DNA from: a bacterium
GTDB lineage: Bacteria; UBA10199; 2-02-FULL-44-16; JAAZCA01
Assembly: GCA_041648665.1 (NCBI GenBank)
Contig: JBAZOP010000003.1
Coordinates: 5,082 to 69,081, forward strand
DNA length: 64,000 nt
Reading direction: 5' to 3'
The notes under the pieces are model-generated. The model searched no databases. It was not told the origin of the DNA and was given only the letters and a program-made list of their open reading frames with translations. Below are positions 742 to 64,000 of the stretch, one piece after another (position 1 is the stretch's first letter; each line of letters opens with the position of its first letter). The translations under genes and the position numbers were made by a program.

Positions 742-1266
742 TCAGAAGCCCATGCGGAAGGGCGAGTTCGGATCACTCTCGTGGCGGATCTCGTCCACAT
801 CGCCATCGCGATTCATCCCCTTGTAAAGCCGGTCTGGGAAGTTCACGACGAGCCCTGGAACCGCGCCCACGTTGCGGTACCCGTGCACGACCCCCGGGGG
901 AACGATCAGCATGCACGGGTTGGAATCGCCCATCCACAGCTTCATCGACTTGCCGTACGTGGGCGAGCCCTTCCGGTTGTCCCAGAGCATGATCAAGAAG
1001 TCTGACGGCCCTGTGAAGCAGAACATGTCCGTCTGCTCCTTATGCTCATGCGGCCCGCGGTCAACGCCGGGGCCGGTCATGGACAAGTAGCACATGGCAG
1101 GAACGGGGATGTTGTCGGACGCGAACTTCAGGTTCGCCCACTTCGCGCACCGCTTGATCTCGTCGTGCCTAAGAAGCTCGCACAGCCAGCCCCTATCGTC
1201 CGTGTGCTTGCTCAGGATCGCAAAGTATATACCCTCCAACCAGTTGCCTTCTTTTTTGAGTTCCAC
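742..1266 (-). CDS. rmlC: dTDP-4-dehydrorhamnose 3,5-epimerase
   Basis: Cupin motifs (WMGDSNPCMLIVPPGVVHGYRNVG, FTGPSDFLIMLWDNRKGSPTYG). GTG start at 1266 preceded by GGAGGT and immediately following the rmlA stop. Confidence 0.8.
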   Translation of the reverse strand: MELKKEGNWLEGIYFAILSKHTDDRGWLCELLRHDEIKRCAKWANLKFASDNIPVPAMCYLSMTGPGVDRGPHEHKEQTDMFCFTGPSDFLIMLWDNRKGSPTYGKSMKLWMGDSNPCMLIVPPGVVHGYRNVGAVPGLVVNFPDRLYKGMNRDGDVDEIRHESDPNSPFRMGF

Positions 1267-1268
1267 AA

Positions 1269-2348
1269 CTACCTCCTGCCGCACGTGATGACCGTGTCGT
1301 CCCCAACGGTGAGAGACAGCCCGCTGTGCGCCAGCGTGTCCTTGATGACTACGCGCCTTCCGACCAGAGCATCCTCCAGGCGGGGCACGCCGACAATCCG
1401 GCTGTCCTCCATGATGACCGAGTGCGACACGGTAGACTCGACGACGCACGCTCTGTCGCCAATCGACGTGAATGGGTCAATCCTTGAGTTGCAGATGCTC
1501 GCGCCCAAACCGATGATGACCGGGCCTCGGATCGTGGAGTTCTGGATAATGGCCCCGTTGCCAACGCGTACGCGGCCCCACAGCTTGCTCTTCTCATCTA
1601 TGTGCGCCCCTGCGCTACCAGACTCCAGGAGGCTGTCCAGAACCGTGTCGTTCGCGAGCAGGAGGTCGTCCTTCTTGCCGGTGTCGAGCCACCACGATGT
1701 GACCATCGAGTAGCCGACCTTGCCGCCCATCTCGATCAGCTCCTCGATCGCATCGGTGATCTCCAGCTCGCCTCGCTTCGACGGCTTGATTCGATCGATC
1801 GCCTCGAAGATGCGCGCGCGGAACAAGTAGATCCCCACGAGAGCGAGATTCGAGATGCGCTCCTTCGGCTTCTCGATCAGCTGGACGATCCCGCCATCCT
1901 TGTTGAGGACAGCAACGCCATACGATGCCGGGTTCGAGACCTCCTTGAGCATGACCGCCGCGTCCACGCCCTTCTGCCATACAAACTCCTGGACCGGAGC
2001 AACGATCGACGTGCCGATCAGGTTGTCTCCAAGGTACATGCAGAAGTCGCTGTCGCCCAGAAACGGCTTCGCCACCAGAACCGCGTGGGCAAGCCCAGCA
2101 GGCTGCTCCTGGCGGATGAATGTGAACTTCACGCCCCACTTAGTTCCGTCCCCGAGCGCTTGCTGAATCTCAAGCCCGGTCTCGGGCGAGATGATCACCC
2201 CGATGTCCCTGACGCTCGCGCGCGCGAGGCTCTCGATGACGTAGAACAGGATCGGCTTGTTCGCCACGGGCACGAGCTGCTTCGCTCCGCTGTACGTGAT
2301 CGGACGAAGTCGGGTTCCACAACCCCCCGCGAGGACGAGTCCCTTCAC
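1269..2348 (-). CDS. rmlA: glucose-1-phosphate thymidylyltransferase, long form with C-terminal left-handed beta-helix
   Basis: N-terminal GLVLAGGCGTRLRP nucleotidyltransferase motif and a C-terminal hexapeptide-repeat region. GTG start overlaps the rmlB stop (GTGA). Confidence 0.8.
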   Translation of the reverse strand: MKGLVLAGGCGTRLRPITYSGAKQLVPVANKPILFYVIESLARASVRDIGVIISPETGLEIQQALGDGTKWGVKFTFIRQEQPAGLAHAVLVAKPFLGDSDFCMYLGDNLIGTSIVAPVQEFVWQKGVDAAVMLKEVSNPASYGVAVLNKDGGIVQLIEKPKERISNLALVGIYLFRARIFEAIDRIKPSKRGELEITDAIEELIEMGGKVGYSMVTSWWLDTGKKDDLLLANDTVLDSLLESGSAGAHIDEKSKLWGRVRVGNGAIIQNSTIRGPVIIGLGASICNSRIDPFTSIGDRACVVESTVSHSVIMEDSRIVGVPRLEDALVGRRVVIKDTLAHSGLSLTVGDDTVITCGRR

Positions 2349-3409
2349 TTCGGCCCCACGCCGAGCCCCAAGCGCTCGCGGTTGTACTTTGCCTTGGCCT
2401 TCTCGCACCAGTCCAGGTGCTCCAGGTACCAGCGGACGGTGTGGCGTATGTCTTTCTCGAAGTCGCGCTTCGGCAACCACCCCGTATGCCTCCACAGCTT
2501 CGATGCTTCGATTGCGTAGCGAAAGTCGTGCCCCGGGCGATCCGTCACGAACCCGATCAGCCTGCGGTATCCGTTCTGGTTCTCTCGTAGCCAGCTGAGC
2601 GCGTCGCAGATCGAATGCACGACCTGTAGCGTGTTCCGCTCTTGGCTACTACCAATGTTGTAGACCTCCCCAGGCGTCCCATCGGTCGCCACACGTATGA
2701 GCGCTTCGCAGTGGTCGTCCACATGGATCCAGTCACGCACGTTCATGCCGTTGCCGTAGACCGGGATGGGCTTGCCCTCGATGGCGTTCAAGATCGTGAG
2801 CGGGATGAGCTTCTCGGGGAACTGGTAGGGGCCGTAGTTGTTCGAGCAGTGCGTGATGATCGTCGGCATCCCGTAGGTCTTGTTGTACGCGCGCACGAGG
2901 TGGTCCGACGCGGCCTTCGTCGCTGCGTAGGGTGAGTTGGGAGCATACGGGCTGTTCTCGGTGAACTTCGCGTCATCCATCCCAAGCGACCCGTAGACTT
3001 CATCGGTGGAGACGTGGATGAATCGGCACGAGCCTGAGCAGCCGCTGCCGCTGCTCCAGTAGTCCTTCACGGCGTTGAGCATCCTCGCTGTGCCCGCAAC
3101 GTTGGTTGACACGAACGGCATGACCCCGTCGATGGATCGGTCCACGTGGGTTTCAGCGGCGAGGTGGAACACGACCGTGGGCTTGAACCACGCAATCTCG
3201 TTGTAGAGATTGCCGGTCCTGATGTCCAGATCCGCAAACTCGAACCGAGGATCTTCAGCCACGTCGGCGAGGTTCTCCATGCTGCCCGCGTAGGTAAGCG
3301 CGTCAATGATGTACACGCTGACCTCGGGCTCCTTGAGCAGCATGCGCACAAGGTTCGATCCGATGAAGCCTGCGCCACCCGTTATGACGTACCTCTTTTC
3401 GCCGCTCAC
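2345..3409 (-). CDS. rmlB: dTDP-glucose 4,6-dehydratase
   Basis: Rossmann motif ITGGAGFIGSNL, catalytic YAATKAASD (YxxxK) and HVSTDEVYG. GTG start at 3409 overlaps the upstream stop. Confidence 0.85.
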   Translation of the reverse strand: MSGEKRYVITGGAGFIGSNLVRMLLKEPEVSVYIIDALTYAGSMENLADVAEDPRFEFADLDIRTGNLYNEIAWFKPTVVFHLAAETHVDRSIDGVMPFVSTNVAGTARMLNAVKDYWSSGSGCSGSCRFIHVSTDEVYGSLGMDDAKFTENSPYAPNSPYAATKAASDHLVRAYNKTYGMPTIITHCSNNYGPYQFPEKLIPLTILNAIEGKPIPVYGNGMNVRDWIHVDDHCEALIRVATDGTPGEVYNIGSSQERNTLQVVHSICDALSWLRENQNGYRRLIGFVTDRPGHDFRYAIEASKLWRHTGWLPKRDFEKDIRHTVRWYLEHLDWCEKAKAKYNRERLGLGVGPK

Positions 3410-3780
3410 TTTCCCGGCTCCCGCTCCCTGGCCTCCGCCGAGATGTTGAAGCGCTGCTCGTACTCGCGACACTTCTTCAGCAGCCGCGTGTTCTCGTTCT
3501 TGTACCAGCTGATCTTGTCCTGCATTGCCCAGTACCGTGAGGCGTACCAGCCCATCTTCTTGCTCAGCGGCGCGAGCACCTTGTACAGCACGTCCACGTC
3601 TCCCTTGGAGAGCTTGCCAAGGAGCACACCCGCAAGCAGAGCCTCCTTGGAGGCCTGCACATCGGCCCCATCCTGCTGGTCAGTGTAGCCAGCTGGCGGG
3701 GCCTCTGGGTACTCGTCCGGGAGACGCGCGGCCCGGTCAAGGTCGGCGGTCTCCACCACAGCTTTCTTCTTTTCAGTCAT
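3406..3780 (-). CDS. hypothetical protein (124 aa)
   Basis: ORF with ATG at 3780, three nucleotides after the SSB stop. Charged composition. Confidence 0.5.
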   Translation of the reverse strand: MTEKKKAVVETADLDRAARLPDEYPEAPPAGYTDQQDGADVQASKEALLAGVLLGKLSKGDVDVLYKVLAPLSKKMGWYASRYWAMQDKISWYKNENTRLLKKCREYEQRFNISAEAREREPGK

Positions 3781-4162
3781 CGCTTCCTCCGTCTCCCTCC
3801 GGAACATCGCCCCCGAGCTGATCTCGAATCGCCTGCGTAACGACCTCGAACGGCACCACCTGCTTGGGCCGGAAGTTGTACCGAGTGATTCGCTTGCCGT
3901 CGATCTCCTCGATCGAGGATCGGATCTCGCCCACAACGTGGACCCACATCCCCTTGCGCAGCCTGTCGGCCATCTTCACGGCGAAGTCCCCGAACCACGC
4001 GAACGTCACCCAGGTCGTGTCCTCCTCCCACTTGTCGTTCTTCAAGTAGGGGATGTTCGCGGCAGCAACGACCTGGAGCCGCTTCTGCCCGTTTAGAAGC
4101 GTCTTCATCGACGGATCTTTGGCGATCCGCCCGAGAAATGTGAACGTTGCGATTCCGCGCAT
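3773..4162 (-). CDS. ssb: single-stranded DNA-binding protein (OB fold)
   Basis: MRGIATFTFLGRIAKDP...WVTFAWFGDFAV...WVHVVGEI...RYNF is a classic SSB pattern, with an acidic C-tail DVPEGDGGSDD. ATG at 4160-4162. Confidence 0.7.
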   Translation of the reverse strand: MRGIATFTFLGRIAKDPSMKTLLNGQKRLQVVAAANIPYLKNDKWEEDTTWVTFAWFGDFAVKMADRLRKGMWVHVVGEIRSSIEEIDGKRITRYNFRPKQVVPFEVVTQAIRDQLGGDVPEGDGGSDD

Positions 4163-4233: not shown

Positions 4234-4980
4234 TCAGGCCGCGCGCTTGATGATCTGCGGTCCGAAGTGCTTTCCAGCGAGGTATCCGAGCCCGGCGAAG
4301 ACGAGCAGGGTGACGATCTTCCCCGTCGAGAAGCCGCCTGCGTAGTTCGGGGGCACGAGGCACTTGGGCCGGAACGGCAGAAGGTCGGGGTCCACGTGCC
4401 CCACGTACTGGATCTCGGACAGCTTGCGCTTCTTCGTGCTGATGTACTGGAGCCCGCCGTGATCCTTGTCGGTGTCTCCGCCATCCACGCTCTGAAGCCA
4501 GTCCTCCGCGGCGTTCATGTCCACGCAGGTGAACGTGTGCGTGAGCAGGCCCGAGCCGACGACGAGGTAGCAGCCGGGGAAGAAGGACCAGTCGGCCTTC
4601 CATGCGCCGAACTTCCGGGCGAAGTCGATGAAGCCCTTGTTGTTGCCGCCGCTGAACGCTGTGCCAGCTTCGTAGGGGAGCCACAGGTTCGGGTCTGCGA
4701 CCCCGCTTCGCCGCTGGTTGCCACGCACAACGAGGCCGCAGGTGGAGACGCCAACCGTTGCGTACGTCTCGTAGTTCTCGACGTGGAAGGGCCGGTCCAG
4801 GTCCCAGTAGGCACCAGGAGGTAGGGGGCCAAGGATGTCCTCGAACTCCGCACGCGCCGCAGGGTTGCCGCTCCACGCCGAGAGGCCGATCATGCTCTTG
4901 GCGTTCGCGATGATGACCTCGCGCCGCCCCGCCGGGGTGGAAGGAGTTGCGATCTCGCGGAGAGGAATTGCTGCACCCAT
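4234..4980 (-). CDS. hypothetical membrane-anchored protein (C-terminal TM)
   Basis: 248-aa ORF with C-terminal hydrophobic helix IVTLLVFAGLGYLAG. Tightly packed in the operon. Confidence 0.5.
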   Translation of the reverse strand: MGAAIPLREIATPSTPAGRREVIIANAKSMIGLSAWSGNPAARAEFEDILGPLPPGAYWDLDRPFHVENYETYATVGVSTCGLVVRGNQRRSGVADPNLWLPYEAGTAFSGGNNKGFIDFARKFGAWKADWSFFPGCYLVVGSGLLTHTFTCVDMNAAEDWLQSVDGGDTDKDHGGLQYISTKKRKLSEIQYVGHVDPDLLPFRPKCLVPPNYAGGFSTGKIVTLLVFAGLGYLAGKHFGPQIIKRAA

Positions 4981-5689: not shown

Positions 5690-6523
5690 CTACGCCGCCT
5701 TCCTCCACAACTGATGGAGCAGGAAACCAACGATCGCTCCGCCGACAACAGCCGCGACCTTCGCGCTGCCCCCACCCTTAGCGAACACCAGCTCACCGCG
5801 CGCCCACGGGGCCAGCAGCGTGCGCCACACGGCCTCCTGGCACTCGTTGGCTTGGTAGATGTGCGCCTGCTTGTCGTCGGGCGGGAAGTCCGGTGGGTAC
5901 ACGCCCAGGATGAACAGCGCACCGATCCCAATCGCTTCCGCAACGGGGATGCCCAGGTCGATGTCGATCGGTTTCGCGCCCACGCTGTCGCCCAACGACA
6001 GGGCCGTCTCGCGCGTCCCTGGGTAGGTGGGCGGCAGGATCTTGGAGTGCGTGACGATCATCATCTTCTCGCCGCGCGACGCGCTGGAGGCGAAATCGAG
6101 CCAGTGCTGCCCAACCTTCGTGACCCTCCAGGTCTCGCCCTTCGCTCGCTCTGCGTACGAGGGCTGCGCGCCCTTCCACCCGCCGTGCATGCCATCCACC
6201 ACGTACAACGCGCTCACCGCATCGGAGTCACCCGTGTTCTTGATGATCTGTCCGATGCCCCAGCCGCCTGCGGAAAAGCCCACAAGTCCGATGAGCCCGC
6301 TCGGGTCTGCGCCATGCTCTTCGATGAACGGACGCAGGAACTCGCCACCGTGCGCGTCCTGGTAGTTCTTGACCCAGGCCTGATGGTTGTCCGAGCCCGC
6401 AGCAGAGACGGGGATCGACAGCACGACCGGGCGCACAGATTCGTCAGGCCACAGCTCGCTCAGAAGCGGTCCGCAGATCGTCGGCGTGCAGGAGAAGTCG
6501 GTGATCAAGATGGGGCGGGGCAT
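5690..6523 (-). CDS. alpha/beta-hydrolase fold serine esterase with C-terminal TM anchor
   Basis: Nucleophile elbow GFSAGG (GxSxG) followed by DGMHGGW. AGGAAG RBS before ATG 6523. C-terminal hydrophobic helix. Confidence 0.6.
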   Translation of the reverse strand: MPRPILITDFSCTPTICGPLLSELWPDESVRPVVLSIPVSAAGSDNHQAWVKNYQDAHGGEFLRPFIEEHGADPSGLIGLVGFSAGGWGIGQIIKNTGDSDAVSALYVVDGMHGGWKGAQPSYAERAKGETWRVTKVGQHWLDFASSASRGEKMMIVTHSKILPPTYPGTRETALSLGDSVGAKPIDIDLGIPVAEAIGIGALFILGVYPPDFPPDDKQAHIYQANECQEAVWRTLLAPWARGELVFAKGGGSAKVAAVVGGAIVGFLLHQLWRKAA

Positions 6524-11471: not shown

Positions 11472-12788
11472 CTACTCCGTGTACTTGTCCCACAGCAGCT
11501 TGCCGATGAGCCCGACGAGCGCGAAGCCGCCGACGATCTTGGCCTTCGCGATCAGCTTGGCCCGCTCGATTTCGTCCAGGCTGAACAGGTTCGTGAACAC
11601 GCCCTCCATGACGCAGGCTTCGGCGTCATCCTGTCCGAATGCGGATAGGCCTATCGGCACCAAGCGTTTCGGGTTGCGCTTGATGATGGTCCCCGTGGGG
11701 CCTCGCCTGGGCGCGACTAGCGAAGCGGCAGCTTGCAGCCCGAGAACCTTTCCGGACAGCCCTTCGAGCGCGCCCTTGGTGCATTCAGTCTTCCAGCGTT
11801 CGGCGAGCACGGTGCGCACGACTTCGCGCTGAATCACCTCGGCCTGGAACTCGTGGGCCGGGCCGCTGCTGATGACAGCGCGGCTGCACCCTGGTTCGGG
11901 TGACTGATCCTTCACGGCGACCCCAAGCGTGATGAAGTTGCCGATGGCCTCGGCGCGCGTGACGCCGTAGGGCGCGCGAAACATCGCCTTGTGCGGGCAC
12001 CCCTGCCACGCCGGGTACGGCTCCGTCCAGTACGTGCCCTGCTCGTCGGTATTGTAGCCAACGGGCCAGCTCTCCCGCGCCCCTTCCTCGACGAACAGTG
12101 CGGCTGGGTACAGAGACCCTTCGGGCCGATAGTCGCCAACGTCCTGCTTGACCAGCGAGATCAGCTTCGTGGCGGCTTCCGTGGTGGATGCGTAGGCATC
12201 ACCCGGCACCACCTGCGAGTGCGACACGACCATGCACTGCTTGCCCTTGGCCGCTTCGGCGGCAAAGGCCCTGATGTTGTCGAAGTCAGCGTCGCGTACG
12301 AAGTCTTGCACCAGCGCGCCATCGATTCGCTCGTTGAACTGACGCGCGCGCGCCATGTCCACCAGCTTCGTGTCCCACGACGCGTGCATGCCGTCGCAGT
12401 AGTACACGAAGTCCACGAGCGCGCGATCCGCCGGGTTCGCAAGGATCTCGCTCACCGCGCCGCACCCGGCTGAAAAACCCATGATGCCCACGCGACCGAT
12501 GGTGTAGCCCTTCGGGATCCTCAGAACTCCCGACGACCCGAGCACCCGCTTCTTCAGCCAAGGAGCGACGAACAGCCCGCCGTTCTCATCCTTGAACGAC
12601 TTGACGGCAGCTTTGTAGTGTCCGCTGCCAACCATGCCGCTCGTAGCGGGAAGCGGCACTTCGGTGACGATCGGCGTGGGGGCGTTGCCCACGCTGTACA
12701 TCCACAGCGTCTCAAGCCAGTCGCCCATCAGCGGCTTCGCCGAGTAGGCCGTGATCAGCACGTCGATGTACTTCGCCATGCCGCCCAT
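11472..12788 (-). CDS. alpha/beta-hydrolase fold serine esterase (paralog of 5690-6523) with C-terminal TM anchor
   Basis: GFSAGCG nucleophile elbow followed by CDGMHASW, the same arrangement as the other esterase. C-terminal TM (IVGGFALVGLIGKLLW). The track ORF begins at a TTG at 12815; ATG at about 12788 is preferred. Confidence 0.55.
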   Translation of the reverse strand: MGGMAKYIDVLITAYSAKPLMGDWLETLWMYSVGNAPTPIVTEVPLPATSGMVGSGHYKAAVKSFKDENGGLFVAPWLKKRVLGSSGVLRIPKGYTIGRVGIMGFSAGCGAVSEILANPADRALVDFVYYCDGMHASWDTKLVDMARARQFNERIDGALVQDFVRDADFDNIRAFAAEAAKGKQCMVVSHSQVVPGDAYASTTEAATKLISLVKQDVGDYRPEGSLYPAALFVEEGARESWPVGYNTDEQGTYWTEPYPAWQGCPHKAMFRAPYGVTRAEAIGNFITLGVAVKDQSPEPGCSRAVISSGPAHEFQAEVIQREVVRTVLAERWKTECTKGALEGLSGKVLGLQAAASLVAPRRGPTGTIIKRNPKRLVPIGLSAFGQDDAEACVMEGVFTNLFSLDEIERAKLIAKAKIVGGFALVGLIGKLLWDKYTE

Positions 12789-12828
12789 TGTACGCGCAGA
12801 CTCCGAAACGCCCAAATGGGGCGAGGTG

Positions 12829-28041: not shown

Positions 28042-29913
28042 ATGGGTAACGGCATCTACTCACCTAGGTATTTTGCTCTTCCTGACATCATCGGGCTCGC
28101 GACCCACCTGGAGGACGATCCAGCGGTCAGCGGGGACCGCGGCGTTTTCGCCCTGGCGGTGCGAAACGACCTTGCCGCGACAATTCTCACAAGCGCGAAC
28201 GGCGACTACAGCGGGATTGCCGTAGACGACCGGGGGCGGCTTTTCACGCTCAGTGGTCCGTCCCCGGCGGGGACGTGGCAGACGCTGCGTGTCTTCGCCG
28301 CGACCATCGCTGACGTTGCGACGCCTGCGGTGATTCAGGTGCTTGGCCCTGGCGCTGTCAACTTGGCCGGTCTCGTCTACCCCGTGAACGCTCTCATCGG
28401 CTTGACCGTCACGATCAACGGGCAGACGTGCACGTTCATCGCGGCTGACGTTGTCAGCCAAGCGGCAATCCTCAACGCGCTCAACGTCGGCATGCCCGAC
28501 ATAACGTGGACGGACCCTGGGAACTTCCTGCTCGCCACGAAGGACACGCCCGGCAACATCGTTCTCAGCGGCACTGCGCTGGTGATCCTCGGGCTCAATC
28601 TGCTGCCAGCTACGACGGGTCCGTGGGTGGCGTTCCCGGTCAGCTCTCCGATGATCGAGATCGGATACCCTCCTGGCTTCAGCGTGGCGAACGCTCCGCA
28701 GGAAGTCATCCTTCGGGTGTGGCGGCTGAGCGGGGCCACGGGGGGTGTTGCGGACATCTGCGGAGAGATGCGGATGAACGCGACGGACATCAACTCGCAG
28801 GAGTCGCGCCGGTTCAGCTTCGACGGGACACACGCCTACGCGACTGTGGAGTTCGTGGGGGGCACAGCTCCGACGATCACTGGCACGCTCGACATCCGTC
28901 CGGTGTTCGATGGCGACCAAGCAATCGAGGCCCCGACGTTCCACGCGGTTGGCCCGAGCATTCTCGCCCACGACTTCTGGGACAACGCCCCGACGCAGGC
29001 CGTCTACAACTACTCGACCCTCAAGGGTGACGGCACGGCGGTTCGGCTGGCGAACACCACGATCACGTTCACCATCACGCCCGGCCTGACGGCTCCGATT
29101 TCGTCGCAGCTTTGCCGGGTGCGCGTGTTCATTGATGCGACCACCAAGCCGCTTGTGTGGGAGCAGGGGCGCAACGCGATCCTGAGCATCGCGGCGGGAG
29201 TCATCACGGTCAACGCGCTCGACGGCACTGTCATCACTGTGCCCGTTGCAGCAACGCTCGTGGAGGTGATGTGGAGCGGGCCGGAGAAGGGCGTAGCGTT
29301 GGAAGACAGCGCGCACGTATCCGGCGAGTACATCACCAAGGGCGGGCGTGTGCGGCGGGACGTGCCCGTGAACAGCGCGGGATCGGATGGCGAATGGTGC
29401 GCGCCGGGCACTGACGCAGACGGATACGACTACACGCGCGACAAGGCGTATGACGCGGCTGGCAACGACAACCGCGTTGCGGAGATCGCGCCTTTGTGGT
29501 CGAAAAATGTACTGACTCCCATCAACGTGATTGCGGCGGCGCAGAACATCGCTGTGGCGTGGGCAGACCTCGGCCCTGAGATCGGTTGCCAGGGGTACAA
29601 GACGTTCTGTCTCCAGGTGGACGTGGACATCAACACCTGCGTCAACGTGAGGTTCCGTGCACTTGCCCTCACGTCGGCTGGTGGCGCGAAGGAGTTTGCG
29701 CTGCCGTGCAAGGTCGTGGATTCGACAGCAGCAGCGTGGCTCGTGAAGGTGCAGCCGCACGTCTACGAGCTTGACCTGGACGTAGACCAGAAGCAACTCC
29801 TGGACTGGGTGACGGACAACGCGATATCGACCATTCAGTTTCAGGTTAGTTGTGAGTCCATGCCCGGGGCTGCGGGCCAAGTCCTCACGGCTGAACTCAC
29901 CTACGGGTACTAG
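28042..29913 (+). CDS. large beta-rich virion structural protein candidate
   Basis: 623 aa, Gly/Thr/Val/Ala-rich with low charge, typical of capsid or vertex proteins. Located at the head of a structural-looking module. Confidence 0.35.
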   Translation: MGNGIYSPRYFALPDIIGLATHLEDDPAVSGDRGVFALAVRNDLAATILTSANGDYSGIAVDDRGRLFTLSGPSPAGTWQTLRVFAATIADVATPAVIQVLGPGAVNLAGLVYPVNALIGLTVTINGQTCTFIAADVVSQAAILNALNVGMPDITWTDPGNFLLATKDTPGNIVLSGTALVILGLNLLPATTGPWVAFPVSSPMIEIGYPPGFSVANAPQEVILRVWRLSGATGGVADICGEMRMNATDINSQESRRFSFDGTHAYATVEFVGGTAPTITGTLDIRPVFDGDQAIEAPTFHAVGPSILAHDFWDNAPTQAVYNYSTLKGDGTAVRLANTTITFTITPGLTAPISSQLCRVRVFIDATTKPLVWEQGRNAILSIAAGVITVNALDGTVITVPVAATLVEVMWSGPEKGVALEDSAHVSGEYITKGGRVRRDVPVNSAGSDGEWCAPGTDADGYDYTRDKAYDAAGNDNRVAEIAPLWSKNVLTPINVIAAAQNIAVAWADLGPEIGCQGYKTFCLQVDVDINTCVNVRFRALALTSAGGAKEFALPCKVVDSTAAAWLVKVQPHVYELDLDVDQKQLLDWVTDNAISTIQFQVSCESMPGAAGQVLTAELTYGY

Positions 29914-32124: not shown

Positions 32125-32264
32125 ATCGCCCCAAGCTGGTCTCTGACCTCCCCGACCCGCCCGTGCTCACGGAAGCGGACATCGAGCGCTTGTACGCGCA
32201 GGAGCGCGCGTGGACTGAGTGGCTGCGGGAGAAGAAGGAAGCGATGGAGGCGATCCGTGGCTGA
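32118..32264 (+). CDS. small protein (48 aa)
   Basis: ATG is in frame and couples to the next gene. Confidence 0.25.
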   Translation: MLDRPKLVSDLPDPPVLTEADIERLYAQERAWTEWLREKKEAMEAIRG

Positions 32265-34845
32265 CACGATGGTCAACGAGTTGCGCGCGGCCTCCCGGCT
32301 GCAACTGGAGCTTCGCTACCAGCGTGGGAGTCTGCTCGACCTGAGCCCGTCTCCGCTTGCTGCGCCTGCCCTGGCTGATACGCCCATGTGGATCGAAAGC
32401 GAGAAGGGCCGGGGCATTGCAACGCCGATTGCGCGCGGGAGCCTGAACTACGGAGCCGCTGCGAAGCTCGACTTCGGGGCCACCGGAGCGTTCTTCTGCG
32501 CCTTCGTTGCGCCGCCTTCCGGTGTGGACCACGCGCTGTTCCGCAAGATGAACTACGGTGCTGGGACGAACGGCTACTGCTTCTTCGTTGGTGCAGGTGG
32601 TGGGTTGGTGTTTCAAGTGGGGGATGCGATAGGCAATGTTCTTGCGGTCAACAGATCGCTCACGCCCGAGATGGCTAGGATGCGCGCGAACACATGGTGC
32701 GTGCGCTGGACTGGCGGGCAGGTGTGGGCTGATTTCAACGGGGGGAACGTCGTATCTGCGGCTGCCATGGTGAAGACACCGACGCCAGCGGGTCAGAACT
32801 TCATCGTGGGGCGTGATGCGGTGGTTGATTTCGCGAACCCGTCGCCGCTGCTGGAGCTTGTGGCGAGCAACACGTTCCTAACGGCAGCGGAGTCGGCGCG
32901 GCTCTATTCTGACTGGCTACGCGAGACGTATCCGAAGGATCTGGCGAGGCGTGGCTTCGTCTACAAGTACCCCTCCAAGAACGCGACCGAGTACGCGGCG
33001 GCGGGGATCGCGCTGGACACCGACTTCGGATCCGAGATGAACGGCACCACGCGCCGGATCCGTGACCTGACGAACAACTACCCGGGGACGATCACGGGCG
33101 TCGTCATCCCGGGGCAGAACGGGGAGGGGCAGAAGACATCTTCTACTAATGATGGTGTAGACTGGGGTGCGTTTACTCCACTAAACAGCGCGGCGTATTT
33201 CAGCCTGGAACACTGGCTCGAATTTCCCGCTGGAAACATTGCCGTGGGCTACATTGATTGGAGAATCAGTGGCGCTGACGGTTGTGCCATAGGTAACATC
33301 ATTGCTGCTGCCAACCCGCAGAAACTTGCATTTCGCGTCATCAACGGAACTGGTGATGCGGCGACGACGACAGCACAGTTGCGCGGAGGAACGCGACAGC
33401 ATTTGCTGTGCGTGTTCAACGGCCCTGGAGCGACGAATCCGGAAAAGGGTCAGGTCTACATTGACGGCGAGTCGGTGCCACTAACCTTCGCCTCGAACTT
33501 CCCGGCCACAACGGCTAATCTGGCAGCGCGCCAGTTGTACACCGGGCAGGGCCTTGGAGTGGCAGGACTTCCAGCAACGCATCACGGCCTACGTTTTTAT
33601 TCAGGCGTTGCCCTGACCCCCACCCAAGCTCGCGCCGCCTACGTGAACAACTTCGCCAAGAAGCTGCTCCTTCGCGAGACTCTTGAGGACGTGCCCGTGT
33701 CCCTGGTGGCGTCCGTGGGAGCGGGCGGCAAGATCGGGCCGTGGGATGTTATCTATGGCACCTGGAAGTGTAGCGAGACCTCGGACGGCAAGAGGTGGCT
33801 GGAGTGCGTGACGGCTGGAGATGCTGTCGTGCCTATCCCGGACTGCTCGTTCGGTACGCACACCTTCTACGTGCAGAAGCACCAGTTGCCCTCTGACACA
33901 CGCATTGTCCTGGGGACATCGCGCTCGCCTGTAGGCACTGCGCTCGCCGGGTCGAATGGGTACTGCACGATCCTCGACGACAACCGGCGCGTGAGAATGA
34001 GCCGCTACACTGCGGGCATCATCGACGCAAACCTGTGGGTGACCGCCAACAATTTCTACGCTGTGGACACGACGTACCAGTTCACCGTTGCGCGTCGCGT
34101 GTCCGATGGTCGCTTCCAGCAATGGATCAAGGGCGGCGCGTACACGGTTGACACAACCACGGGTGGCCCAGCGGCTGACGCGACGTACACGGGGCTGGCG
34201 TGGCTGCACTTCCAAGGTGGAGCAGGCGACAAGCTCTGCCTGTACGACCCTCGCGATCCCACCGTTGCGTTCAGCGTGTACCAGGGCTGCTTGAACCCCA
34301 CGATGGGCGAATTGCCCTCGTCCGTTTTGCTGAACATGCTGCGCTACAGCGAGCAGTTCGACAACGCGCTGTGGACGAAGGCGAACCTGACCGTCACACC
34401 GAACGTGGCTGCGAGCCCGTTCGGTACGCCAAGCGTCGTTGACCTTCTCACCGCAACGGCAGGCGCATCGACAGCCGTCATCGGGCAGTCCGTCACCGCC
34501 AACCCCGCTGCGCAGTACACGCAGTCGGTCTACACGAAGGCATCCGTGGGGACGGCCTTCACGCTGCACCTCGCAGACACCGTGACCGGCGAATGCTCAG
34601 CGGTCTTCAACCCGGCAACGGGCGCGCTGACCACGCTGACCGCAGGAGTCTACGGCAACGTGTCGGCGGGCTCAGAGGCTCTCCCCGGCGGCTGGTGGCG
34701 CTACTGGATCAGCGGCTCGCAACCGGCAGCACAGACCACCCTGCGCTCGTACACGTCGCTGCCGAACAACGCGGACGCGATCTACTACTACGCAGAGCAG
34801 CTTGTGCAGGGACCGTGCGCGGGCGCTTACAGGGAGACGCAGTAG
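32257..34845 (+). CDS. large fibre/receptor-binding-like protein
   Basis: 862 aa, Gly/Thr/Ala/Asn-rich with lectin-like composition and a C-terminal WWRYW motif. Confidence 0.4.
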   Translation: MADTMVNELRAASRLQLELRYQRGSLLDLSPSPLAAPALADTPMWIESEKGRGIATPIARGSLNYGAAAKLDFGATGAFFCAFVAPPSGVDHALFRKMNYGAGTNGYCFFVGAGGGLVFQVGDAIGNVLAVNRSLTPEMARMRANTWCVRWTGGQVWADFNGGNVVSAAAMVKTPTPAGQNFIVGRDAVVDFANPSPLLELVASNTFLTAAESARLYSDWLRETYPKDLARRGFVYKYPSKNATEYAAAGIALDTDFGSEMNGTTRRIRDLTNNYPGTITGVVIPGQNGEGQKTSSTNDGVDWGAFTPLNSAAYFSLEHWLEFPAGNIAVGYIDWRISGADGCAIGNIIAAANPQKLAFRVINGTGDAATTTAQLRGGTRQHLLCVFNGPGATNPEKGQVYIDGESVPLTFASNFPATTANLAARQLYTGQGLGVAGLPATHHGLRFYSGVALTPTQARAAYVNNFAKKLLLRETLEDVPVSLVASVGAGGKIGPWDVIYGTWKCSETSDGKRWLECVTAGDAVVPIPDCSFGTHTFYVQKHQLPSDTRIVLGTSRSPVGTALAGSNGYCTILDDNRRVRMSRYTAGIIDANLWVTANNFYAVDTTYQFTVARRVSDGRFQQWIKGGAYTVDTTTGGPAADATYTGLAWLHFQGGAGDKLCLYDPRDPTVAFSVYQGCLNPTMGELPSSVLLNMLRYSEQFDNALWTKANLTVTPNVAASPFGTPSVVDLLTATAGASTAVIGQSVTANPAAQYTQSVYTKASVGTAFTLHLADTVTGECSAVFNPATGALTTLTAGVYGNVSAGSEALPGGWWRYWISGSQPAAQTTLRSYTSLPNNADAIYYYAEQLVQGPCAGAYRETQ

Positions 34846-48714: not shown

Positions 48715-48832
48715 GCGCGCCCTCGGGAACTTGACACCGTTGCGGATCTTGCCGTAGACTGCCTCTCACGTAGCAAGAGCCTCGTTGGCCCAGGGTGACG
48801 AGTTCAGCTCCCGCGAACTGAGCGGAGTTGTA

Positions 48833-48862
48833 TTCCAACGGCGTGCAGGCCGATATCTGCAA
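48833..48862 (+). promoter_or_regulatory. fifth copy of the 30-bp element (reverse-complement orientation, so on the coding strand), 10 nt upstream of the ATG of the polybasic gene
   Basis: TTCCAACGGCGTGCAGGCCGATATCTGCAA is the reverse complement of the repeat consensus. Confidence 0.5.
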
Positions 48863-48872
48863 TCATCACCCG

Positions 48873-51305
48873 ATGGCACGAGGAAGGATTTTCCGGATCA
48901 CGAAGGCCCAGGCAAAGGCCTACGAAATCCTGGATCCGCCCTCGACGCGCTCGGCCCGCCCGAACCCAGGCGTCACGGCCATCATGGGGATCACCAACGG
49001 TCGCGGAGCTGCGAAGCGCGGGGCTCGCAAGGGCAAGGCTCGCAAGTCGGTCCGCATGCTCGGCGGCATCAGCTGCCCCAAGACGGCTCCGAAGAAGCAC
49101 CGCATGGCAGGGGCGACGAAGCGCTCAGACTACGCGCTGCCGCAGTGCTTCCACTACCCGGTGCGCACGCGCGGCAAGGCTTCCGTCTTGAAGATCCGGC
49201 GAGCCCTGACCCGCTACGGCACGCACAAGAGCAGGTACTCGCCCGCCGTCCGCAGGCAGATCGAGCGCGGGATCGCGAAGGCTGCGAAAGAAGCCGGGAT
49301 GACGAGTCCCGTGGCGATGAAGTACCGCAAGAAGTTCGCACTGGCGAATGCAAAAGGAGAAAGCCCCATGTTCGTCGTCCCCAATGCCGCGCGCAAGCGC
49401 GCAAGGCGCAAGTCCAAGTCGCGCAAGCTGTCCCCGGCTCATGCCTTCTTCTTGTACCCGACCACCAAGGGCAAGATCGGCGCGTCGGCGTCCCCGAACC
49501 GCAAGCGCAAGGCGCGCAAGGCCCGGAAGGGTGCTCGCAAGCTGAAGTTTGGCTCGCCCGCATGGCAGAAGAAGTTCAACCCGCTGTACGGCGGCAAGGG
49601 CAAGACGCGCAAGGGCAAGAAGTCGACTGCCAAGCGTCGGACCGCGCGTCGGATGGTTACGTCGGGCGTTCGTCGCGTGACCGTTCGTCGTGGCAAGGGC
49701 AAGCGCCGCAGCGGTCTGAGCGTCGCTCTGCGCAACATGTCGATCCTTCCTGCGGTGCCGAACAAGCGTCGCCGCTCGACCAAGAAGTACAGCGCCGCGT
49801 GGCATCGCAAGATGACGCATGCGGTCGCGAACCGCTATCGTCGGCGCGCTCGGCGCAACGCAGAGGGCGAGGGGATCTTCTTCCCGGGCGAGGGCGGAGG
49901 TTCGTTCATGGACGAGCCCTCCACCATCATGTCCGAGGCGCAGGAGAAGAAGCTCGCTGCTGCCGCCACTGCCGAAGGCATCGCTCAAGACATGTTCAAG
50001 ACTCAGGCGGATTTCGACGCGTGGTTCGCGAACATGTACAAGAGCAAGACGTTCCGCAAGTTCTACATGTCATTCAGACGAAGGCGCACTGCGCTCTCCA
50101 AGCGAGGTAGGAAGATGGCAACCAGGAAGAAGGGCAAGAAGGCTGCGGGCCGCAAGCCTCGCAAGGGCAAGAAGGCTCGCAAGGCACGCAAGGGAACCCG
50201 CAAGCTGAAGTTCGGCTCGCCCGCATGGCGCAAGAAGTACGCGCGCAAGATCGCGGCGGGTCGGCGCAAGGCGAAGCGGCACGGCACGCGCAAGGCTGCG
50301 AAGCGTCGCAAGAGCGGCTCGCGCAGCAAGCGCCGGGTCACGCGTCGTCGAGGCACCGCACGTCGTCGGAGCGCAGCGCGCCGCCGCACGGGTGGTCGTA
50401 GGCTCAAGTTCGGCTCGAAGGCGTACAACAAGAAGTACGCGGCCAAGCGCAAGCGCAACCTTCGGTCGGCGAAGCGTCACGGCAAGCGCAGGGCTCGCCG
50501 GAACTTCAGCTTCCGTGCCATCCCGAACCAGCTGCTCATGCGCGTCAAGGCCATGGCGATCCCTGGGCTCATCGCGCTCGGTGGCTACGCCATCCATCGC
50601 GTTGTGACCAAGGTTCTGTCCAAGGCCATCGGCGGCACGGTCACGAGCTACGCCGAACCCCTGAGCGGGCTCGTCGCGATCGCGGCTGGCACCTGGGCGG
50701 TTGGCAAGTTCCTGCCGCAGCACTCTCATGCTGCGATCATGGGCATGGCCGTCAGCTTCGGCGCGTTGCTCCTCAAGAGCTTCCTGCCCGACGTTGCGAC
50801 CTACCTGGGCATGGGCTCGGTCGGATCGCAGAACCAGCGCGTGCGCTGGGGCATGCAGGGACCGGAGTTCATGCAGGCGGCTGCTGGCCCGGAGTTCATG
50901 CAGGCGGCTGCTGGCCCGGGGTTCCTCCAGGCGGCTGCTGACTACTACCAGCCCGCGAGCGGGATCGGCGAGTACGTCAGCGATGGTTCGCTCTCTCCCG
51001 TGAGCGACTTCGGCGAGTACGTCGCGAGCAATCTCGACGTGAGCGGCTGGGGTGACTACGAGGTGAGCACCCAGTACCAGACCGGCGCGGACGGCTACGG
51101 AGCCATCAACGACGGGATCCAGCCGGGCGGCAATCTCGATCAGCAGTTCAACATCATGGAAGCGGCGGCGGGGCTCGGTCTGAACAGCCCCGGCAGCTCG
51201 TCCACCTACGTCCCGCACGAGGGCATGCGCAACGTGGCCTCTGCGGAATCGAGCGACAGCTCGGGCGTGTTCGATGTCGGCGGAGGCAACGGCGTCCTGG
51301 GCTGA
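48873..51305 (+). CDS. 810-aa polybasic (protamine/histone-like) repeat protein with TM segments and an acidic C-terminal domain
   Basis: The first ~550 aa are extremely Lys/Arg-rich, with three ARKARKGxRKLKFGSPAW(Q/R)KK(F/Y)-type repeats. These are followed by hydrophobic helices and then GPEFMQAAAGPEFMQAAAGPGFLQAAA repeats in an acidic tail. The 30-bp element lies 10 nt upstream. Confidence 0.6.
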   Translation: MARGRIFRITKAQAKAYEILDPPSTRSARPNPGVTAIMGITNGRGAAKRGARKGKARKSVRMLGGISCPKTAPKKHRMAGATKRSDYALPQCFHYPVRTRGKASVLKIRRALTRYGTHKSRYSPAVRRQIERGIAKAAKEAGMTSPVAMKYRKKFALANAKGESPMFVVPNAARKRARRKSKSRKLSPAHAFFLYPTTKGKIGASASPNRKRKARKARKGARKLKFGSPAWQKKFNPLYGGKGKTRKGKKSTAKRRTARRMVTSGVRRVTVRRGKGKRRSGLSVALRNMSILPAVPNKRRRSTKKYSAAWHRKMTHAVANRYRRRARRNAEGEGIFFPGEGGGSFMDEPSTIMSEAQEKKLAAAATAEGIAQDMFKTQADFDAWFANMYKSKTFRKFYMSFRRRRTALSKRGRKMATRKKGKKAAGRKPRKGKKARKARKGTRKLKFGSPAWRKKYARKIAAGRRKAKRHGTRKAAKRRKSGSRSKRRVTRRRGTARRRSAARRRTGGRRLKFGSKAYNKKYAAKRKRNLRSAKRHGKRRARRNFSFRAIPNQLLMRVKAMAIPGLIALGGYAIHRVVTKVLSKAIGGTVTSYAEPLSGLVAIAAGTWAVGKFLPQHSHAAIMGMAVSFGALLLKSFLPDVATYLGMGSVGSQNQRVRWGMQGPEFMQAAAGPEFMQAAAGPGFLQAAADYYQPASGIGEYVSDGSLSPVSDFGEYVASNLDVSGWGDYEVSTQYQTGADGYGAINDGIQPGGNLDQQFNIMEAAAGLGLNSPGSSSTYVPHEGMRNVASAESSDSSGVFDVGGGNGVLG

Positions 51306-57630: not shown

Positions 57631-58323
57631 ATGCCCGGACTTCTGGAGTTCTTCCGATCGGCTATCAAGGGCGGCAACGGTGCCGGTGGCCCAGAGGACT
57701 TTCGTGCAGCTGCGAACCTCATCGACGGCGCAACGTTCGTGCAGCAGACCGTGAGTGCGCTGTCTGGCGAGCGCGCGCAGGCGCTGCTGTTCGAGGTGCT
57801 GCTTCCGTGGGCGGGGCAGGTTGCGGGCTTGGCCGTGAACAGATGGACCTCGATGCGATCGGGTCGGCGATCGCACTGCCGCCTTCAGGTGAAGGGTGAG
57901 CCGTGCCGCAGAGCGAGCGCCTCAACCTGCTTCGGTTGCGGCAAGCCCGTGTGTCTCGAACACGCGTTCGTCGGATCGGACTCGACGCTGGTGTGTTGGG
58001 AGTGCATGCGCGTCGGGGTGAACACCGCCGTCAAGGGGCGCAAGCATTCGGAGCATCAGCCGCCGCCCGAGAACTGGAACTGGGACAACTCCGCCGCTCC
58101 GTCTCCGGAGGAGCAGCAGAAGAAGGACATCGGCTGGGCATACGCAACCATCGGCGTGGCCGAAACAGCGACCGATGACGAGATCAAGTCCGCGTACCGC
58201 AAGGCGAGCGCGAAGTGGCACCCGGACCGCGCGAAGGACCCGCAGGAAGCCAAGAGCCACGCGGAGATGTTCAAGTCGATTCAGCTCGCGATGCAGACCA
58301 TCAGGCAGCAGCGCAACGTCTAG
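57631..58323 (+). CDS. J-domain (DnaJ-like) protein with N-terminal CxxC cluster
   Basis: C-terminal IKSAYRKASAKWHPDRAKDPQEAKSHAEMFKSIQLAMQTI contains the diagnostic HPD tripeptide. CFGCGKPVC and CWEC lie upstream. Confidence 0.6.
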   Translation: MPGLLEFFRSAIKGGNGAGGPEDFRAAANLIDGATFVQQTVSALSGERAQALLFEVLLPWAGQVAGLAVNRWTSMRSGRRSHCRLQVKGEPCRRASASTCFGCGKPVCLEHAFVGSDSTLVCWECMRVGVNTAVKGRKHSEHQPPPENWNWDNSAAPSPEEQQKKDIGWAYATIGVAETATDDEIKSAYRKASAKWHPDRAKDPQEAKSHAEMFKSIQLAMQTIRQQRNV

Positions 58324-58332
58324 GAGATCGCG

Positions 58333-59460: not shown

Positions 59461-60806
59461 TGGGTCTCGAAGAGTTCATCATCGACGAGCAGTGCGAAGG
59501 CTCTATCGAGCAGCAGCTCGCAGAGCACGGCGACATGTGGAAGGAAGGGCGGGCCGCGAAGCACGAGCGAGGCATCGTCTACAAGGCCCCGTGGGAGACG
59601 CAGCACGACGGCGTGTGCATCGCGGCGCGTCGGCATGCGCGCGCGCTCCGGATGACGGGCGTGCCGGTGTTCCTGCAATCGGACAGCTTCACCCACTCGA
59701 ACCTGGGCGTTGTGTCGGAGGTCGAGTATTTCAGCCTCCCCGGGCTGGTGCGCGCGGAGGTGGATGGCATCACGCAGGTGGATCACGGACAGTCGCTTCT
59801 GCTCATCCGGCACTGCGTGCCGACGCGCGGGGCTCTTGAAGCTCTCGTCTATCCTCCCGTGATGCGGCTTCTGAACCATGAGCAGCTCACAGTGGTCCGC
59901 AAGGCGATGATCTTGTTCAGCGCGTTCGAGACCGACAAGCTCGACGAAGACGCCGTGCGGTACATGAACATGCTCGGGCGCGTCTGGGTAACGTGCGACA
60001 AGAACAAGCAGTGGCTCTCGGCAGCAGGCGTGGACGAGGCCCACATCGTTGTGGTGCCCCACCCCTTCTACGGCAAGGACCCGATGGCGCAGCCCAGGAC
60101 TGGCAAGCGCACGGGACTCTTCAGGTTTCTCAACGTCTCGAAGTGGGAGCCCCGCAAAGCGCAGCACGACCTTATCGGCGGATTCCTGCTGGCTTTCGGC
60201 CCAGCCGATGACGCAGAGCTGGTCCTGAAGTGCAACCCGTTCGCACGCGTCGAGGGCTACCCCGCGGACTGGCAGGCCTCCATCGAGCAGTGGGCCGCGA
60301 ACGAGAAGGTTTCCGCACGTTGGACCAAGGAGAAGATATACGAACGCGTAAAGGTGCTATGGAAAGCCCACATGACGCGTGCAGAGCTGGCGCAGCTCTA
60401 CCGTGAGTGCGACGTGTACGTGAGCACTGGGCGGGCCGAAGGCTTCGATTTGCCCGCATTCGACGCGAAGCTCTCGGGGATGAGAATGATCCATGCAGCG
60501 AGCGGCGGGCCTGAGATGTTTCACCAGCCGGGCGTGGATGTGCTGATCGATCCGACTGCGGAGACGCAGCCGTTCCACCCGATCTACAACGCCGCCCCGG
60601 ATGCGAGGTGGTGTGGGTTCGACGCGACGCACGTGAGCCACGCGCTGATGGCTGCGTACGCGTGCTTCCGCGATCCGATCCCTGCGTTCGACCGGAGCAG
60701 GTACACGATGAAGGCAGTCGGGGCCGTGATGCGCCAGTCGTGCAACGAGCTTCTGAAGGAGCACGGTACGGACATCTCGAACGTGAACGTGGACGCCTCG
60801 CCATGA
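59460..60806 (+). CDS. GT-B fold glycosyltransferase (GT4-like)
   Basis: C-terminal STGRAEGFDLPAFDAKLSGMRMI matches the E-x7-E-type donor-binding region. Confidence 0.5.
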   Translation: MGLEEFIIDEQCEGSIEQQLAEHGDMWKEGRAAKHERGIVYKAPWETQHDGVCIAARRHARALRMTGVPVFLQSDSFTHSNLGVVSEVEYFSLPGLVRAEVDGITQVDHGQSLLLIRHCVPTRGALEALVYPPVMRLLNHEQLTVVRKAMILFSAFETDKLDEDAVRYMNMLGRVWVTCDKNKQWLSAAGVDEAHIVVVPHPFYGKDPMAQPRTGKRTGLFRFLNVSKWEPRKAQHDLIGGFLLAFGPADDAELVLKCNPFARVEGYPADWQASIEQWAANEKVSARWTKEKIYERVKVLWKAHMTRAELAQLYRECDVYVSTGRAEGFDLPAFDAKLSGMRMIHAASGGPEMFHQPGVDVLIDPTAETQPFHPIYNAAPDARWCGFDATHVSHALMAAYACFRDPIPAFDRSRYTMKAVGAVMRQSCNELLKEHGTDISNVNVDASP

Positions 60807-61120
60807 AGCAAGTCTTCCCCCACAGGTTCTCAGCAGCGTTGGGGCTGAAGGTGCTCAGGCTTGCCGAAGCGCAGCTGCGAGAGCAGCATCCGGCTCTCGG
60901 GCTGACGACGATATGGGAAGAGCAGAAGAGCCGCGTGGGGTTCGGGTTCACCGCTTTGACGACACGGTTTGCTGGGGTGATCACGTCGAAGGATCGAGGT
61001 CTGCACCTGGAGATGGACGTGCCGACGATCTTCAAAGCGTGGATCCCTCTCGCCAAGCAGGTGATCGAACGCGAGGTCGGCAAGTGGATCGCGCGTGTCG
61101 AGAAGGGGGAACTCGGATGA
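60803..61120 (+). CDS. hypothetical protein
   Basis: ATGA-coupled to the upstream gene. 105 aa. Confidence 0.4.
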   Translation: MKQVFPHRFSAALGLKVLRLAEAQLREQHPALGLTTIWEEQKSRVGFGFTALTTRFAGVITSKDRGLHLEMDVPTIFKAWIPLAKQVIEREVGKWIARVEKGELG

Positions 61121-63986: not shown

Positions 63987-64000
63987 GTCGTGAACGATGG

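Follow-up and report, generated by a model that had tools for sequence, protein, structure and literature searches.

An rmlB-rmlA cassette on a probably viral element ends in an RmlC-like cupin with a metal-site signature

Near one end of a 64,000-nucleotide stretch of bacterial metagenomic DNA (NCBI GenBank assembly GCA_041648665.1, contig JBAZOP010000003.1, positions 5,082 to 69,081; hereafter the window) lies a cassette of three genes—rmlB, rmlA and a gene for an RmlC-like cupin—on an element that is probably a virus. A first-pass annotation of this DNA had taken the cassette for the first three steps of deoxythymidine diphosphate (dTDP)-L-rhamnose synthesis. That reading stands for two of the genes, as RmlA and RmlB pass the equivalog cut-offs of their families, but the third gene encodes something other than a canonical RmlC. 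Judged from its sequence it belongs to a distinct and widespread cupin family, apparently uncharacterised, which is apparently metal-binding and most likely serves as the pathway equivalent of RmlC.

All positions below are window coordinates, and the cassette is encoded on the minus strand in the transcription order rmlB, rmlA, cupin. The window corresponds, in reverse complement, to positions 64,971–128,970 of a 134,065-bp metagenomic contig (ENA ERZ27247363 k141_1124820). The sequence examined comprises the 64-kb window and 13.7 kb of flanks (5.1 kb beyond position 1, up to the contig end, and 8.6 kb beyond position 64000), together 77.7 kb of the 134 kb. Fragments of the window sequence are also present in a Logan assembly.

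The third gene encodes a cupin distinct from canonical RmlC

The product of the third gene matches the broad RmlC family of Pfam (PF00908) with 38.7 bits and passes the cut-off of 27, whereas it reaches 25.2 bits against the canonical RmlC model TIGR01221, whose cut-off is 155.75. An AlphaFold (AF2) model built on an alignment of 53 homologs (predicted local distance difference test, pLDDT, of 90.9) predicts an RmlC-like cupin fold: its top Foldseek matches are 1WLT, 3EJK, EvaD and RmlCs (E about 1e-9 to 1e-10), the best by TM-score (template modelling score) being the uncharacterised 3EJK. In profile alignments with archaeal RmlCs and Escherichia coli RfbC the N-terminal DxRGxxxE nucleotide-binding motif is retained. 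H73 aligns with the catalytic His (His63 in Salmonella enterica RmlC), which is the His of the RGLH motif in E. coli RfbC and the archaeal RmlCs, and H128 corresponds to the His of the HG(F/Y) motif. The position of the catalytic Lys of RmlC (Lys73), which stabilises the enolate, is taken by D80, an Asp that is invariant across the cupin family. The alignments stop at about residue 135 of 174, before the region of RmlC with the catalytic Tyr133 and with Asp170, the partner of the His. Because of the shortfall against TIGR01221 and the replacement of the catalytic Lys by an invariant Asp, we place the protein outside canonical RmlC. Weak matches to PF14667 were not used as evidence; E. coli RfbX itself has no match to that family.

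The family consensus comprises G-x5-H-x-H-x4-D (motif 1) and P-x-G-x2-H-x3-N (motif 2), the classical metal-cupin signature, and the corresponding ligand motifs of the cassette protein are H73-E-H75-x4-D80 and P-P-G-V-V-H128-G-Y-R-N132. Conservation was assessed in homologs retrieved through RmlA, a set that is hence unbiased for the cupin: H73, H75 and D80 are each present in 34/34 and H128 in 33/33, and all four are likewise invariant in 112 further bacterial and viral homologs. D80 would complete a His3-Asp site, and the protein probably uses a divalent metal as CapF of Staphylococcus aureus uses Zn2+. The C-terminal cupin of CapF is a Zn2+-dependent epimerase that has His288 and His290 at its site and hands its product to a fused reductase of the short-chain dehydrogenase/reductase (SDR) type (PMC5393024). 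RmlC-type epimerases, in the abstract of PMC3765361, are described as metal-independent.

The family is large, with more than 4,000 database relatives, and is carried by at least 571 species genomes and more than 30 viral contigs. Its members measure about 150–205 aa, mostly around 160 aa, and occur in phyla that include Acidobacteriota, Myxococcota, Planctomycetota, Ignavibacteriota and Zixibacteria, and also in Methanoperedens archaea. No paper characterising the family was found in the literature searched.

Genomic context points to an epimerase step ahead of a 4-reductase

Bacterial relatives place the cupin where RmlC would be expected. Of 80 species genomes, 23 encode RmlD (100–267 bits against E. 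coli RfbD) close to the cupin; canonical RmlC is encoded at none of these loci. An independent set of metagenome loci, retrieved with long-form RmlA and having at least 4 kb of flank (n = 20), contains the cupin in 11 cases, ten of them with RmlD, in gene orders that include A-cupin-B-D; the three loci of this set that encode canonical RmlC all lack the cupin. The closest homolog (58% identity) belongs to an operon rmlD-rmlB-rmlA-cupin-GT4 (locus L207), and the RmlD beside it scores 297 bits on the RmlD hidden Markov model (HMM) built here and is 37% identical to E. coli RfbD.

Viral relatives show the same association as gene fusions. Twenty-two IMG/VR viral contigs encode a protein of 416–474 aa with the cupin at the N-terminus and an RmlD-like reductase at the C-terminus (PF04321, 43–71 bits), directly preceded in 21 of the 22 by a gene for a 4,6-dehydratase-like SDR. 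The fusion and the upstream SDR appear to form a compact viral 6-deoxyhexose module with a domain order that is the reverse of that in CapF. These loci (L021–L042; e.g. L033 3995–6371 and L024 6042–9290) come from AT-rich contigs of up to 332 kb and have no RmlA nearby. RmlC-RmlD fusions of like size, just over the profile thresholds, were reported in a survey of 21,964 genomes (bioRxiv 10.1101/854612).

Since the cupin occupies the rmlC slot beside a true rmlD, with canonical rmlC absent, and is fused in viruses to an RmlD-like reductase, it is most likely the epimerase step of the pathway, the equivalent of RmlC that feeds a 4-reductase. Epimerisation would take place at C3 and C5 or at least at C3, two outcomes between which the sequence does not discriminate.

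The resemblance to CapF extends from the HxH pair (H73/H75 here, His288/His290 there) to the coupling of a cupin with an RmlD-like SDR in the viral fusions. The order is SDR-cupin in CapF and cupin-SDR in the fusions, the substrate here is presumably a dTDP-sugar and not the UDP-acetamido-sugar of CapF (UDP, uridine diphosphate), and a comparison of the cupin profile with Cap5F (2ZKL) gives an E value of 0.46; metal binding is here predicted from the motif alone. As the similarity to Cap5F is not significant, the comparison with CapF concerns mechanism and not family membership.

Several of these features could also be read as signs of a different sugar. The cupin would then be no 3,5-epimerase and would act as a 3-monoepimerase, leading to 6-deoxy-allose or 6-deoxy-gulose, or as an FdtA/QdtA-like 3,4-ketoisomerase that feeds an aminotransferase. 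The family has the HxH motif and several homologs also match PF05523 (FdtA); the Lys of RmlC is replaced and its Tyr region is not alignable; even among canonical RmlCs no features are known to tell 3- from 3,5-epimerases; and a DegT aminotransferase is encoded near the cassette of a Polyangiaceae metagenome-assembled genome (MAG; locus L005). We nevertheless consider this quite improbable. Strong RmlDs (up to 267 bits against RfbD, 297 on the HMM) stand beside the cupin in many operons without canonical RmlC, viruses fuse the cupin to RmlD-like reductases, and profile matches to FdtA/QdtA structures are far weaker than those to RmlCs. The DegT gene of L005 is grouped with PglF-, PglD- and PglC-like genes, a separate UDP-sugar route. 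An amino-sugar route built on DegT and PglD near the Polyangiaceae cassette was rejected, as these genes sit with the PglF- and PglC-like UDP-sugar genes.

RmlA and RmlB are ordinary family members

RmlB scores 436.4 bits against TIGR01181 (cut-off 365.1) and 264 bits against PF16363. Its motifs GGAGFIG (at residue 11), STDEVYG (134), YAATK (161), NNYGP (190) and RDWIHVDD (225) are present, and the Rossmann GxxGxxG, the catalytic Thr-Asp-Glu (STDE, 134–137) and YxxxK (161–165) are all intact. RmlA scores 424.9 bits against the long-form model TIGR01208 (rmlA_long; cut-off 320.25), is aligned over positions 1–351 of 353 including the C-terminal beta-helix, and falls below the cut-offs of the short-form models; GGCGTRLRP, KQLVPV, QEQPAGLA, LGDN, EKP, GELEITD and WLDTG are all present. 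Both proteins thus read as ordinary members of their families. The first-pass annotation had named inactivating substitutions as a finding that would count against it; motif inspection found none in RmlA or RmlB, whose catalytic motifs are intact.

The missing reductase and the proposed pathway

Within the 77.7 kb no RmlD was found by tblastn, for which E. coli RfbD and six viral RmlD-like domains served as queries, nor by an HMM of 24 sequences run against all six-frame segments of at least 40 aa; in both searches RmlB itself was the sole match. Pfam likewise identified no further SDR or NAD-binding family among the 84 open reading frames (ORFs). The absence of rmlD proposed from the window alone therefore extends to the 13.7 kb of flanks, where that annotation had suggested looking, and its statement that the pathway as encoded stops at dTDP-4-keto-6-deoxyhexose holds for these 77.7 kb, barring a reductase supplied by the host or encoded in the other 56 kb of the contig.

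The lack of an adjacent rmlD is not peculiar to this element. The nearest genome relative, the Polyangiaceae MAG, has the order rmlB-rmlA-cupin and no rmlD within 10 kb, and among the 43 species genomes in which the cupin is flanked by 5 kb or more on each side, 34 have no rmlD within 6 kb of it. Because these genomes and the Polyangiaceae MAG are alike in this respect, the missing rmlD is less special here than it first appears: an rmlB-rmlA-cupin unit without adjacent rmlD is common in bacteria too and is not virus-specific. A counterexample is that one of the three closest relatives has rmlD directly upstream of rmlB. In the present element this slot, which holds rmlD in L207, is filled by an unrelated 133-aa ORF and the gene for a single-stranded DNA-binding protein (SSB).

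Our preferred account, held with moderate confidence, is that the element contributes RmlA, RmlB and a metal-type cupin, and that an RmlD of the host or a gene elsewhere on the contig completes the route to dTDP-L-rhamnose. RmlA would convert glucose-1-phosphate and dTTP to dTDP-glucose, from which RmlB would form dTDP-4-keto-6-deoxy-D-glucose; the cupin, probably with a bound divalent metal, would epimerise this 4-keto intermediate at C3/C5 or at least at C3; and the last step would fall to host RmlD or to a gene elsewhere on the 134-kb contig. The net effect may be a raised or captured supply of activated 6-deoxyhexose during carriage or infection, for glycans of the cell surface or of the element's own proteins.

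Several points weigh against this account. The literature searched contains no assay of any enzyme of this cupin family, and a 3-epimerase or other activity is possible; the similarity to Cap5F itself is not significant; the supply of RmlD by the host is an assumption; the rmlD search spans 77.7 of 134 kb, and the remaining 56 kb may hold a reductase. The 34 genomes without a nearby rmlD also leave room for a product other than rhamnose.

If a reductase does lie in that remainder (contig positions 1–56359), the pathway would be complete on the element, with an rmlD or another 4-reductase, for instance a Tll-type enzyme leading to 6-deoxy-L-talose, and the apparent lack of rmlD would stem from the limits of the window. 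Genomes often have their rml genes scattered (bioRxiv 10.1101/854612), and in the relative L057 rmlD is located 4 kb from the cassette and does not adjoin it; together with the extent of the search this would suit a distant reductase gene. We regard it as unlikely, given that all three genes of the cassette are in one coupled unit, that the rmlD slot of L207 is here taken by the 133-aa ORF and the SSB gene, and that the 84 ORFs hold no other SDR or NAD-binding family.

The glycosyltransferase pair

The first-pass annotation had placed two GT-B glycosyltransferases at 59460–62277 and connected them with the cassette in a scheme of virus-directed glycosylation. Both genes exist and the span is close to the one found here (Table 1). 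The second transferase is a clear GT4-type enzyme, above the cut-offs for PF20706 (GT4-conflict, 48 bits), PF00534 (44.5 bits) and PF13692 (38 bits) and with an EX7E-type motif, EGFGLVPLE. The first looks like a distant relative: its matches to Glycos_transf_1 and Glyco_trans_1_4 of Pfam, at about 20 bits, are under the cut-offs, and its motif, EGFDLPAFD, has the second E changed to D. A RAEGF(D/G)L motif region is common to the two.

The proposed connection with the cassette is not supported. The pair is 56 kb from the cassette, and nothing indicates its donor sugar. Neither transferase has close relatives in IMG/VR, and the family of the second is small (159 homologs, mostly on contigs of 1–185 kb). 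A distant relative, L205 (38% identity), has the same order of DnaJ, two ORFs, first transferase, second transferase, small ORF, giant integrase-domain protein and SNF2 helicase, so that window positions 57631–64000 are syntenic with L205 6903–19876; the counterpart of the first transferase there has 466 aa and stands beside the homolog of the second. Gene calling gave no rml gene in the 21-kb locus of L205. Because this synteny is conserved at a locus without a called rml gene, the pair looks like a core module of the element lineage and not a partner of the rml genes. In another carrier, the 185-kb L206, the transferase is surrounded by small ORFs, among them an Acb2/Tad1-hairpin gene and one for a VanY-type hydrolase (endolysin).

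These observations also bear on a reading in which no RmlD step follows and the epimerised dTDP-4-keto-6-deoxyhexose is itself the end product, used directly or after tailoring by the two transferases. It would imply a virus-specific glycan chemistry decorating virion or host-surface proteins. It accords with the absence of a reductase from the 77.7 kb, with the presence of two element-encoded transferases, and with 11 IMG/VR contigs that have the cupin and no SDR within 8 kb, two of them with the cupin right after a GT2-family transferase. We hold it to be very improbable: the search turned up no precedent, 56 kb separate the transferases from the cassette, in L205 they form a module with no rml gene in the 21-kb locus, and the bacterial and viral context of the cupin consistently points to a following 4-reduction.

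The two contigs with a GT2-family glycosyltransferase (IMG/VR; L012 7222–8420 and L014 7273–8468) carry a stand-alone cupin, and neither a dehydratase nor a reductase is encoded within 8 kb of it. Next to the DnaJ-transferase module, on its upstream side, the window encodes a membrane protein with long Ser/Thr/Pro/Ala-rich tracts (56442–57419, plus strand); that it might be a glycosylation target is conceivable and pure speculation.

Layout and origin of the cassette

The span of 742–3409 given in the first-pass annotation matches the gene boundaries exactly, although the genes were listed there in plus-strand order, and independent gene calls on the source contig gave the same three boundaries. 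Its proposal of translational coupling is borne out as well: the 133-aa ORF upstream and rmlB share a GTGA in which the stop of the former overlaps the GTG of the latter, rmlB and rmlA overlap in the same way, and the GTG of the cupin gene follows 2 nt past the TAG of rmlA, with AGGAGG 5 nt upstream of the cupin start. The cassette stands at the end of a co-directional block that spans at least 20 kb and includes the SSB gene, and no convincing promoter or terminator was seen flanking it.

Table 1. Genes of the cassette, its upstream neighbours and the transferase region, in window coordinates
Feature	Position	Strand	Remarks
rmlB, dTDP-glucose 4,6-dehydratase, 354 aa	3409..2345	-	GTG start
rmlA, long form, glucose-1-phosphate thymidylyltransferase, 359 aa	2348..1269	-	GTG start
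RmlC-like cupin with classical metal-site motif, 174 aa; probable 4-keto-6-deoxyhexose epimerase	1266..742	-	GTG start
133-aa ORF, no Pfam match, coupled to rmlB	3406..3807	-	called gene L001 8542-8943
SSB, 129 aa, upstream within the co-directional block	3773..4162	-	PF00436; L001 8187-8576
First transferase (GT1), divergent GT4-like glycosyltransferase, 452 aa	59448..60806	+	phrog_2170, E 1e-10
105-aa ORF between the two transferases, no family match	60803..61120	+	called gene L004 8534-8851
Second transferase (GT2), GT4-family (GT-B type) glycosyltransferase, 363 aa	61186..62277	+	phrog_2170, E 1.2e-22

The best matches of all three cassette proteins come from the same few loci, namely those of the Polyangiaceae MAG, a Myxococcales MAG and two 'Deltaproteobacteria' MAGs, and the three complete loci among the top matches share the order B-A-cupin of the window. 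Identities to the closest cassettes, which come from MAGs of the Myxococcota type, are 62–65% for RmlA, 55–56% for RmlB and 55–58% for the cupin. Since the same loci are best for all three genes and have the same order, the cassette was likely captured as one block. Its GC content at third codon positions (GC3) is 0.83, and the remainder of the window has an equal value (0.82 ± 0.04), which implies that the capture is old and the cassette long resident; a recent horizontal acquisition was rejected on this ground. The cassette thus appears to descend from a bacterial operon of the rmlD-rmlB-rmlA-cupin type, of which the element retains only B-A-cupin.

When metagenomes were scanned with RmlA, the closest match reached 63% and no near-identical cassette came up, and the cassette DNA shares with GenBank phages only short stretches of rmlA and rmlB at 67–74%. 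All three proteins match PHROG families (phrog_8784, phrog_540 and phrog_3980).

Nature of the carrier element

That the cassette is virus-encoded, as the first-pass annotation had it, is plausible from the phage-like gene content, and we consider the element probably a virus. Two facts stand against the claim: the 78 kb examined yielded no capsid, portal or terminase gene, and NCBI files the contig in a bacterial MAG. Beyond position 1 the 5.1-kb flank encodes RecT, an RNase_T-type exonuclease, a YqaJ nuclease and a helix-turn-helix protein; beyond position 64000 the 8.6-kb flank encodes a 1301-aa Phage_integrase-domain protein, a MazG-like pyrophosphatase and an SNF2 helicase. Other phage-like genes are those for a RecE-like exonuclease, the SSB, primase-helicases, a polymerase exonuclease subunit, an NlpC/P60 hydrolase, a sigma-70 region-2 protein and DnaJ, and the layout is one of long one-directional blocks of overlapping ORFans.

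We weighed against this the possibility that the carrier is a plasmid, an integrative element or a mis-binned bacterial island, with the cassette part of a bacterial accessory polysaccharide repertoire. Neither PHROGs nor Pfam revealed a capsid, portal, terminase or tail family among the 84 ORFs, the large proteins (803 aa and 447 aa) have no relatives in GenBank phages, plasmids or IMG/VR, the NCBI protein labels read 'MAG: ... [bacterium]', and a giant integrase-domain protein is present. A non-viral carrier is rather unlikely in view of the RecT, RecE-like, YqaJ, SSB, primase-helicase, MazG-like, NlpC/P60 and sigma-factor genes, the lack of conjugation or plasmid-partition families in the same ORF scans, and the long one-directional ORFan blocks. 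The family of the second transferase, moreover, occurs on contigs of 20–185 kb, among them the one with the Acb2/Tad1-hairpin and VanY endolysin genes, and candidate receptor-binding proteins of the LamG/CBM type (CBM, carbohydrate-binding module) are shared with relatives on 41–180 kb contigs.

Two large proteins are candidates for this receptor-binding role, as judged from domain similarities. For the 623-aa protein (28042–29913, plus strand) only a C-terminal CBM/lectin-like sandwich is confidently modelled; the model as a whole is poor (pLDDT 49.7), and weak matches to phage tail proteins are not decisive as a virion hallmark. The 862-aa protein (32257–34845, plus strand) is similar to LamG-domain proteins. 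Both also occur on the 104-kb JGI contig L124, in a long one-directional block.

Further features of the element were noted. The window (1–64000) contains no tRNA genes. The coding strand switches near 21 kb, minus below and plus above, with primase and helicase genes just after the switch. ORF 63348–63986 is the C-terminal part of the 1301-aa integrase-domain gene; this unusually large protein (63348–64000, minus strand, continuing in L004 11079–14984) has a 1393-aa counterpart at the same position in L205. An 825-aa protein (48828–51305, plus strand) is extremely Lys/Arg-rich, with repeated RKLKFGSPAW(Q/R)KK units, after which come predicted membrane helices and a Gly/acidic tail that stems partly from a 27-bp tandem repeat (50862–50940); it might condense DNA or belong to the virion interior. 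Two apparent paralogs on the minus strand (11472–12815 and 5690–6523) have a GFSAG(G/C) serine-hydrolase-like motif and a hydrophobic C-terminal tail-anchor, and a 248-aa protein (4234–4980, minus strand) has a similar C-terminal anchor.

Comparison with known systems and significance

Compared with the canonical RmlA-B-C-D pathway (E. coli rfbBDAC; RmlC, EC 5.1.3.13), the cassette agrees in its bona fide RmlA and RmlB and differs in the long form of RmlA, with a C-terminal left-handed beta-helix, and in the absence of rmlD. The cupin has in common with canonical RmlC the fold, DxRGxxxE, the equivalent of the catalytic His, the His of HG(F/Y) and the position of rmlC in the rmlD operons of relatives; it differs in failing the equivalog by a wide gap (25 against 155.75 bits), in having Asp for Lys and in its full metal-cupin signature.

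Viruses of eukaryotes also encode 4,6-dehydratase chemistry followed by epimerase/reductase chemistry for the glycosylation of virion proteins, as in the UDP-L-rhamnose enzymes R141 and L780 of Mimivirus and the GDP-mannose 4,6-dehydratase (GMD) of the chlorovirus PBCV-1. These giant virus and chlorovirus routes use UDP- or GDP-sugars and an SDR-only bifunctional epimerase/reductase in eukaryotic hosts, whereas the element described here has bacterial-type ribosome-binding sites and dTDP-type enzymes. Other parallels are the auxiliary rml/rfb genes of phages and prophages, which likewise place nucleotide-sugar genes of the rhamnose pathway on phage-like elements. Such genes are already known from PHROG families and from Shimia haliotis prophage 1, which carries an rfbABCD cluster (PMC8224337). 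The present case departs from these in having three steps only, a non-canonical epimerase and a carrier without recognisable relatives among GenBank phages or IMG/VR.

The element itself adds one more mobile, probably viral, genome with sugar-nucleotide genes, which is a modest result. Of broader interest is that a group of cupins labelled 'RmlC family' by annotation pipelines is without a key RmlC residue, has an invariant metal signature and occupies the rmlC slot beside rmlD. The cupin family itself is the part most worth following up. If the cupin is a metal-dependent 3,5-epimerase, a textbook step would have two mechanistic solutions; the family would then explain genomes that seem to lack rmlC and would be relevant to work on inhibitors that target RmlC.

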